Positions 43,775 through 44,719 of a stretch of 64,000 nt of DNA are shown here, one piece after another. The notes under the pieces were generated by a model. The model was not told the DNA's origin. It saw only the letters and a list, made by a program, of their open reading frames with translations, and made no database searches. A program made the translations under genes and the position numbers. Source of the stretch: an uncultured delta proteobacterium (GTDB lineage Bacteria; Desulfobacterota; Desulfobacteria; Desulfobacterales; JAFDCJ01); contig CAVYNY010000007.1 in assembly GCA_963769935.1 (NCBI GenBank), positions 128,001 to 192,000 of the forward strand. The letters run 5' to 3'. Positions within the stretch are counted from its first letter, which is position 1. Each line of letters begins with the position of its first letter.

Positions 43775-44719
43775 ATGTCAAAACCATATTTAGAATGGAT
43801 TGATGAAAATCAGCAGACGCATCGGGTAGAGATAGTTGACAGGATCTGTATGGGGCGAACCTGCAAGGGGATTGACCCGCAGAAGCGGATTCTACTGGGG
43901 TTTCCTCCGGTGTCCAGAGATCATGCCGAGATCAACTACACCGCGGGACATCTTCAGATTACCGATACAAGCATAAACGGTACCTGGATTAATGATGTTC
44001 GGATGGCGGCCGGATCGACCAAAACGCTTTCAGACGGGGATACCATTCGCATTGGTTATTCTCTCTTGCGGGTTGTCTATCCTAAAGTTGCCGCCGATGT
44101 CACCCAAACCCATACCCTTACAGAATTGACAATGGTGTCGGCGGTGGTGGGAGTTGTCACCAGCTTGGTGGCAGATTTACGCGGATTCTCAGCCTTTAGC
44201 CAAACCCATGATTCCGCCGATGTTTACGGCATGATCAATGAAATATTTAAACGGTTCAGCAGGATAATCGAAGACTTCAAGGGCACTGTCAAAGATTACG
44301 CCGGGGATTCCGTCATTGCCTTCTGGGAACATCAATTCGGGGAACCTGCCAAGCAGTCCGAGCTGGCGTGTCGGGCAGCCATTCAACAGATGCAAAGCTT
44401 TGATAAAATCCGGGTTAAACTATCCGGTAAACATGCTGATGTTGAAAACCTTAGGATGGGTTGGGGAATCACCACCGGACCGGTTACCCTCTCTCATTTC
44501 GGTTCACGCACAGCCGATCTGGCAATGGTCGGAGACAGCATCAATCTGGCGAGCCGGTTTTCCGGTATGGCAAACAAAGTCATCCCTGAGAATATTCTCA
44601 TCTGCGCTCAAACAGCCGAACTTATCGGAGATGGTTTGGCGCTCAAGGATCTGGGAATGCATTCAATCCAGGGCCGGCAAGGCAGGGAGCACATTTTTGC
44701 GATAGCCACAGCGTCGTAG
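43775..44719 (+). CDS. FHA domain-class III nucleotidyl cyclase
   Basis: FHA: MGR, VSRDHA, DTSINGTWIN, LSDGDTI; cyclase: ADLRGFS, AGD, GITTGPV, VGDSINLASR, QGR. Confidence 0.92.
   Translation: MSKPYLEWIDENQQTHRVEIVDRICMGRTCKGIDPQKRILLGFPPVSRDHAEINYTAGHLQITDTSINGTWINDVRMAAGSTKTLSDGDTIRIGYSLLRVVYPKVAADVTQTHTLTELTMVSAVVGVVTSLVADLRGFSAFSQTHDSADVYGMINEIFKRFSRIIEDFKGTVKDYAGDSVIAFWEHQFGEPAKQSELACRAAIQQMQSFDKIRVKLSGKHADVENLRMGWGITTGPVTLSHFGSRTADLAMVGDSINLASRFSGMANKVIPENILICAQTAELIGDGLALKDLGMHSIQGRQGREHIFAIATAS

Follow-up and report, generated by a model that had tools for sequence, protein, structure and literature searches.

The window, a stretch of 64,000 nucleotides analysed as a whole, carries at 43775..44719 (+) a gene for a protein of 314 amino acids in which an FHA domain precedes a nucleotidyl cyclase domain of class III (ORF call, Pfam, structural model and structure match). 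The protein is a class III cyclase that bears neither the canonical adenylyl cyclase signature, nor the canonical guanylyl cyclase signature, nor that of PycC, and the Asp174/Ala250 pair at its base-selecting sites is a family trait. A conserved phosphothreonine pocket in the FHA domain and a conserved linker threonine, Thr119, are newly reported here. The preferred reading, given a probability of roughly 0.42, is that FHA domain, Thr linker and Asp/Ala cyclase would form a homodimeric, GTP-preferring enzyme which makes cGMP and is switched by a kinase at Thr119. Confirmed bacterial guanylyl cyclases are few, and the rules by which class III cyclases select the base are only partly worked out; a small, soluble protein of two domains with a conserved Asp/Ala pocket lends itself readily to testing them. 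In the literature covered, mostly main texts of non-subscription journals, no description was found of an FHA-class III cyclase with an Asp/Ala pocket, of a phosphothreonine-gated bacterial cyclase or of a T6SS-embedded cyclase. The available main text of the Pucsar preprint contains no mention of FHA; its supplementary cyclase table may list members.

Domain layout and active site

The FHA domain (aa 26-94, 43850..44056, +; PF00498, E 1.5e-12) is followed by a low-confidence, probably disordered linker (aa 105-124, 44087..44146, +; pLDDT <50) and by the class III cyclase domain (aa 126-306, 44150..44692, +; PF00211, Guanylate_cyc, E 2.7e-14), whose 53.6 bits against a cut-off of 21.9 assign it to the cyclase homology fold. 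An AlphaFold2 model of the monomer, built from a 48-row alignment (mean pLDDT 78), matched Pseudomonas CyaB (PDB 3r5g) with Z 25.7 and rmsd 2.2 over 190 aligned residues, and Synechocystis Cya2 (2w01) with Z 23.5 and rmsd 2.3 over 187 residues. CyaB, Cya2 and Arthrospira CyaC (1wc1) are the nearest solved relatives of the cyclase domain, CyaB and CyaC being the best matches of the protein in both sequence and structure. A promoter and terminator scan gave signals no better than chance. RNA-library contigs from one study, about 95% alike, overlap part of the gene and are no demonstration of transcription.

Conservation was assessed in 202 full-length members of 280-400 aa, a redundant set in which some occur both as protein and as locus and in which, as in all family counts, kin are not independent. 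The homology search yielded 579 proteins among 2378 candidates, of which the best 120 were used; the representative search listed at least 150 proteins, and 80 of 326 loci were kept from a genome scan. Both metal ligands, Asp134 in ADLRG (44174..44176, +) and Asp178 (44306..44308, +), are present in 202 of 202 relatives, and the transition-state pair Asn257...Arg261 (44543..44557, +) is retained in 198 and 201 of them, respectively. Base-selecting site 1, Lys in adenylyl and Glu in guanylyl cyclases, is Asp174 (Lys173-Asp174, 44291..44296, +), and site 2, Thr or Asp in adenylyl cyclases, is Ala250 (Asp248-Leu-Ala250, 44516..44524, +). Asp174 is found in 198, Ala250 in 189, Lys173 in 195 and Asp248 in 165 of the 202 members. 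The cyclase part has a dN/dS of 0.07-0.22 in 4/4 pairs, which together with the family-wide retention counters drift as the origin of the pocket. Residue 299 is Gln in the window protein, and Lys or Arg in 174 of 202 relatives.

The original prediction had held that the catalytic residues are intact and that both adenine selectors are lost, Lys to Asp and Thr/Asp to Ala. All of the motifs it quoted are there, ADLRG (D134), VKDYAGD (K173, D174, D178) and LAMVGDSIN (A250, N257), together with R261, and the loss is borne out by a HMMER alignment of the active-site strands to CyaB, CyaC and Cya2, which is gap-free and sets Asp174 against Lys, Lys and Glu and Ala250 against Thr, Thr and Gly. In place of the Lys and Asp/Thr selectors of canonical adenylyl cyclases the protein has Asp174 and Ala250. 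Asp174 is acidic, yet shorter than the Glu of canonical guanylyl cyclases; Ala250 belongs to the small or non-acidic residues (Cys, Ser, Ala, Gly) seen at their site 2. The Cya2-type helper residues, a basic residue two positions ahead of site 2 and a Tyr three past the Asn, are missing: Asp248, which is adenylyl cyclase-like, replaces the Lys of Cya2, and Ser260 replaces its Tyr.

A register shift that would bring Lys173 into the pocket, the arrangement under which the original prediction expected cAMP, is unlikely on alignment and model. The alignment has no gap, the model shows a single unbroken strand (171-176) ahead of the GD turn, and Lys173 is lost yet Asp174 retained in some family members; in a related clade the same Lys stands ahead of the canonical Glu in 20/20 members, which also argues against the shift. 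Site 1 stands four residues ahead of the second metal Asp, an offset that agrees with Glu523/Asp527 of CYG12 in the accessible part of PMC2576301 and is reported likewise, in partial sources, for CaGC (Glu497/Asp501) and PucC (Glu118/Asp122). A sequencing or assembly error behind Asp174 was ruled out by contigs from two public DNA runs, both of which span codon 174: the first differs at none of 569 bases and covers codon 250 as well, and the second differs at 1 of 540. Loss of the beta-4 Arg (Gly229) was discarded as a sign of inactivity, since Gly is also found in Cya2 and in 23/38 canonical Lys/Thr cyclases.

FHA domain, linker threonine and kinase genes

The phosphothreonine-binding motifs G27-R28, S47-R48-H50 and N68-G69 are all present, and R28, S47, R48, H50 and N68 each occur in 200-201 of 202 relatives; according to the available text on Agrobacterium Fha, the Arg and Ser are required for phosphothreonine binding. 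Thr119 (44129..44131, +), a phospho-acceptor predicted from conservation, precedes the first metal Asp by 15 residues and is conserved in 201 of 202 family members. A Thr at -16 to -14 from that Asp was found in 65/66 other FHA-adjacent cyclases, in 6/38 large cyclases without an adjacent FHA domain, and in 3/8 short or partial ones. Among the 80 loci kept (of 326), Ser/Thr kinase genes are present at 33, against about 1.1 expected at the density of the window genome, and PP2C genes at 20. At least seven architectures are represented among the neighbouring kinases. Most often the genes are arranged as kinase-PP2C-cyclase-MBOAT-AlgX, accompanied by a deacetylase and a TPR-LysM gene. In the window genome this module lies 24-51 kb downstream, on the contig of the window, and includes two kinases, one PP2C and three other FHA proteins. 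The conserved FHA pocket, Thr119 and the frequent kinase neighbours point to a kinase-gated cyclase.

The kinase/PP2C/FHA island of the genome (L121 and L122, G000:C7:196678-223265), the usual home of the cyclase family, also contains MBOAT, AlgX-SASA, polysaccharide deacetylase, TPR-LysM and FHA-SLT genes.

In the proposed mechanism, a Hanks-type kinase would phosphorylate Thr119; the candidates in the window genome are encoded on the contig of the window, 29 and 41 kb downstream, with kinase domains at G000 C7:201985-203622 and 214127-215311, and a PP2C gene is at 222519-223265. Class III enzymes need a head-to-tail dimer. The FHA domain would bind phospho-Thr119, most simply that of the partner subunit, and thereby clamp such a dimer, and a PP2C would undo the clamp. 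Asp174 of one subunit would then read guanine N1-H/N2-H, directly or via water, while Ala250 would be neither donor nor acceptor for adenine N6, and the cyclic nucleotide would act on one of the cyclic nucleotide-binding proteins of the cell. The protein would be a cytoplasmic signalling enzyme and not a secreted effector; in the T6SS subclade, the gene would have settled beside the sheath-fusion gene and may feed T6SS regulation.

Binding of phospho-Thr119 by the FHA domain is proposed by analogy with known FHA systems. Binding in trans, which would stabilise the catalytic dimer, is preferred; binding in cis could instead be inhibitory, as in GarA. Partial sources describe phosphothreonine-FHA dimerisation for Mdc1 and FHA self-binding for GarA, and GarA/OdhI and Mdc1/Chk2 resemble the window protein in that a chain with an FHA domain also carries a conserved Thr within a disordered stretch. 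They differ in that here the Thr is C-terminal to the FHA domain, ahead of an enzyme domain, and its phosphorylation is predicted.

Family distribution and T6SS neighbourhood

Titled records of the family come mainly from Desulfobacterales and other deltaproteobacterial MAGs, and also from Desulfosarcina, Gammaproteobacteria and Gemmatimonadaceae. The gene is patchy, being present in 8/23 genomes of the genus and in at least 3/401 sampled genomes of the phylum (with at most five candidates scored per genome); the phylum search yielded Asp-clade genes only. In a tree of 135 cyclase domains (27 hand-picked family rows and 108 others, domains <140 aa excluded), four supported groups contain small FHA-cyclases: Lys-Asp/Ala, the window family (99), Lys-Glu/small (96), mostly Asn/Thr (100) and canonical Asp-Lys/Thr (98). 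The window family is one of these four clades, which differ in pocket; their branching order is weak (78). Related FHA-cyclase clusters in the Atlas are mostly from Thermodesulfobacteriota, Actinomycetota and Verrucomicrobiota.

The near-invariant linker Thr, shared by pockets of four types, suggests that Ser/Thr kinases connect directly to cyclic nucleotides in bacteria. A wider reading, which we regard as rather improbable, is that the small FHA-Thr-cyclases are a radiation in which one phosphothreonine switch was placed on four pockets (Lys/Thr, Glu/small, Asp/Ala and Asn/Thr) for different cyclic nucleotides, with Asp/Ala as a new guanylyl cyclase type whose T6SS subclade would connect Ser/Thr kinase signalling with type VI secretion through cGMP. 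Such a radiation of kinase-to-second-messenger converters would be undescribed.

Related small FHA-cyclase clades (P0138-P0269) with Lys-Glu-Tyr-Gln and Asn-type pockets have the linker Thr in common, and the catalytic Asn is retained in just 8/20 of the Glu clade. The genome encodes 19 class III cyclase domains (L081-L099). Among the 17 others that were aligned, 6 have Gln at site 1, 5 have Asp, 3 Lys, 2 Glu and 1 Asn. One of them, L090 (G000:C17:9949-10464, -), has a Cya2-like signature, with Glu at site 1 and Lys-Tyr-Gly at site 2, and its product is by sequence a second candidate guanylyl cyclase.

The T6SS core genes tssJ-K-L-M, tagF, impE, tssA-B-C, hcp, tssE-F-G and clpV occupy 18865..36628 (+). 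The upstream neighbour of the cyclase gene encodes a TssB-TssC (VipA-VipB) fusion (41979..43562, +), additional to canonical tssB and tssC, and the downstream neighbour is vgrG (45282..47526, +). The latter is frameshifted near 45540 in the assembly; the frameshift is absent from three relatives and from contigs of two near-identical strains, and is therefore probably an assembly error. The description of the enzyme as T6SS-embedded in the original prediction holds for the window, where the gene lies between fusion and vgrG in a complete cluster, but does not extend to the family, which is mostly linked to kinase and PP2C genes. Embedding is real for a subclade, the window genome and its closest relatives, to which it is limited, and does not define the family; in the subclade it may be functional.

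Nine of 13 metagenome loci are family members. In five of these, at 75-82% identity (L100-L104, with L101 and L104 near-duplicates), the cyclase gene comes after the same TssB-TssC fusion as in the window, and in four of the five vgrG is next, the fifth locus stopping inside the gene; the remaining four family loci, at 55-57% identity, have no T6SS genes. T6SS-type neighbours were found at 4/80 genome loci (L001, L075, L014 and L020; 39 of the 80 reach 15 kb). The cyclases of L001 and L075 adjoin a different TssB-C fusion. As a first scan overlooked the L001 fusion and a more sensitive one caught it, further distant T6SS genes may be missed. TssF is present in 19 of 50 tested genomes, representing 50 of the 80 loci, with no match in 31; within the genus it is present in 2/23 genomes, both with the cyclase, and 6/8 cyclase-bearing genomes have no TssF match. 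A family-wide T6SS role was rejected on the counts of 4/80 loci and 19/50 genomes.

No kinase, PP2C or TagH gene was found in the T6SS cluster, and no TagH above cut-off in the genome. The window protein itself scores 39 bits with TIGR03354 (TagH), against a cut-off of 120.25, and is not assigned to TagH/Fha. The T6SS pathway of PpkA, PppA, TagH (Fha) and TagF is similar in its logic of kinase, PP2C and FHA domain, and TagF is encoded in the cluster; unlike in that threonine phosphorylation pathway, the FHA protein here is not TagH, kinases and PP2C lie outside the cluster, and the predicted output is a cyclic nucleotide. If the T6SS subclade uses the enzyme, it would provide a cyclic-nucleotide arm of T6SS control in sediment Desulfobacterales-like bacteria.

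Several further features of the region were recorded. The L075 fusion is about 22% identical to the window fusion, and the L001 fusion 46% identical to that of L075. Window positions 41713-41964 hold an 83-aa gene remnant that lost most of its length by internal deletion, and a public contig crosses the deletion gap-free. L101 and L102 have intact copies of 364-369 aa in this position, which match PF03497 and ExoY-type class II nucleotidyl cyclases, so that these relatives have a cyclase-like gene on either side of the sheath fusion. Two tandem TPR-methyltransferase genes in the T6SS cluster (37819-40703) are kept in L101, L102 and L104. Beyond vgrG, 47552-59149 contains DUF6484, DUF2169, ketoacyl-synthase-like, PAAR-like, TsiV immunity and TIGR02270 genes, with RES-domain and TIR-domain genes further along. 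On either side of the cyclase gene (43568-43602 and 44855-45057) there are direct and inverted repeats, AT-rich and intergenic; these short stretches are common to many unrelated contigs, which suggests dispersed repeat elements.

Nucleotide specificity and alternative readings

Judged from its residues, the enzyme has cGMP as its single most likely product, a preference to which we assign slightly less than an even chance. The acidic/small pocket resembles guanylyl cyclases in composition. The original prediction had taken an acidic plus small pair as their mark; Asp/Ala fits that description, but the acidic residue is Asp and not Glu, and Asp248 and Ser260 are not guanylyl cyclase-like. Lys at site 1 is accompanied by Thr or Ser at site 2 in 50/51 cyclases, and Glu by Ala, Ser or Gly in 18/20 small FHA-cyclases; by this coupled change the family pattern groups with the Glu type. 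In the available account of the CaGC-GTP structure, Glu binds guanine N1/N2 and the second residue faces away without contact. Site 2 is described, again in a partial source, as variable in guanylyl cyclases, Ala and Gly included. No guanylyl cyclase with Asp at site 1 was found in the literature examined, in which the known ones have Glu, and the Tyr of Cya2, at the position of Ser260, is reported in an incomplete source to enhance guanylyl cyclase activity.

Among known enzymes, Cya2 likewise combines an acidic residue at site 1 with a small one at site 2 (Glu/Gly there), shares the DLRGF start and a Gly replacing the beta-4 Arg, and differs in Glu for Asp, Lys for Asp248, Tyr for Ser260 and the lack of an FHA-linker layout; its properties are taken from secondary sources including the accessible part of PMC4284465. 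CyaB and CyaC share the metal Asps, the Asn/Arg pair and, two positions ahead of site 2, the Asp; unlike them, the window protein has Asp and Ala for the Lys and Thr selectors, an identity of about 24% and another regulatory domain. PycC and PucC are also class III folds with an altered base pocket. PucC, which according to the available text makes cGMP, has its acidic residue at the same offset (Glu118, four before the metal Asp) and Lys195 at site 2, where the window protein has Ala. The Xanthomonas guanylate cyclase XC_0250 has, in the available text of PMC3770947, an Ala at a substrate-specifying position too. By the same incomplete account that enzyme contains TPRs, is linked to a cGMP receptor and is without the Asn/Arg pair; it is likened here by description, not by sequence.

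It is somewhat unlikely that the enzyme is kinase-gated but uses ATP, or both ATP and GTP, in a non-canonical pocket and makes cAMP like other atypical class III enzymes. The closest solved structures are the adenylyl cyclases CyaB and CyaC, Asp248 and Ser260 are adenylyl cyclase-like, and Lys is missing at site 1 in 14/17 aligned genome paralogues, so that its loss is common. The accessible data on Ma1120 cut both ways: mutants with guanylyl cyclase residues keep the preference for ATP (K101E with kcat/Km 0.82 for ATP vs 0.05 for GTP, and K101E/D157G still ATP-preferring), which makes the two-residue rule weak, but K101E cut adenylyl cyclase activity by 92% at pH 7.5. Against cAMP, both adenine contacts are gone together and fixed family-wide, canonical Lys/Thr FHA-cyclases form a separate clade, and the register shift is unlikely. 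Should cAMP simply be the product, the finding would be more modest, with the kinase switch still of interest. A pyrimidine or other unusual product (cUMP, cCMP or cIMP) is improbable. BcPycC is described in a partial source as recognising uracil via an Asp, the PADLOC PycC profiles match with E 5e-15 to 9e-5, and Phe at the position of Ser260 in 121/202 relatives could narrow the pocket. However, these PADLOC profiles also match a protein of the related Glu clade, and the PycC determinants, an aromatic residue two before the first Asp (F60/F100) and a polar or basic one two before the second (K104/Q144), correspond to Val132 and Ala176 by offset from AnPycC/EaPycC numbering, not by structural alignment; these two residues would leave an open, purine-sized pocket. 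PDB 7r65, which we take to be BcPycC, matched with E 0.007 vs 3e-14 for CyaB. No PycC entry was among the 50 structural matches listed, an absence that carries no weight. On the missing determinants, the 7r65 match and the shared PADLOC matches, Pycsar membership was rejected; unlike Pycsar and Pucsar, the protein has an FHA domain, and no adjacent gene for a CNBD-TIR (PycTIR) or TM (PycTM) effector was found.

That the cyclase is a weak or inactive NTP-binding scaffold with FHA as the working part, which in the T6SS subclade could replace the missing TagH/Fha, is quite improbable. TagF is present and is reported to bind Fha in other bacteria (PMC5995506, available in part), and the phosphate-binding Lys/Arg299 is replaced by Gln, Pro or Thr in 22/46 closest relatives; against this stand the near-complete retention of metal Asps, Asn257 and Arg261, the low TagH score and the 6/8 gene-bearing genomes of the genus in which TssF was not found. 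A cyclase effector secreted by the T6SS is highly improbable: the gene adjoins vgrG, and close relatives have the ExoY-like gene directly upstream of the sheath fusion, but no delivery domain was found, the FHA domain is regulatory, most family loci are distant from T6SS genes and 31/50 genomes have no TssF match.

The genome has about 20 cyclic nucleotide-binding domains, none of them in the window, where no match was found among 53 ORFs. Such genes are neighbours at 9/80 loci (80 of 326) vs about 3 expected, and are of several kinds; no dedicated cGMP receptor linked to the family was found among the 80, which tells against the preferred cGMP reading. A CRP-family regulator, the same in both cases, follows kinase and PP2C near the cyclase at L065:14771-15436 and L068:10693-11220, and its C-helix has Leu-Thr where M. 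tuberculosis CRP has Thr-Asn. E. coli CRP T127L is reported to respond to cGMP. The Leu was discarded as a receptor clue, because the available part of PMC2743635 gave no confirmation and both loci carry the same CRP. SulP-STAS-CNBD and ABC-CNBD genes adjoin L011, L025, L070 and L072.
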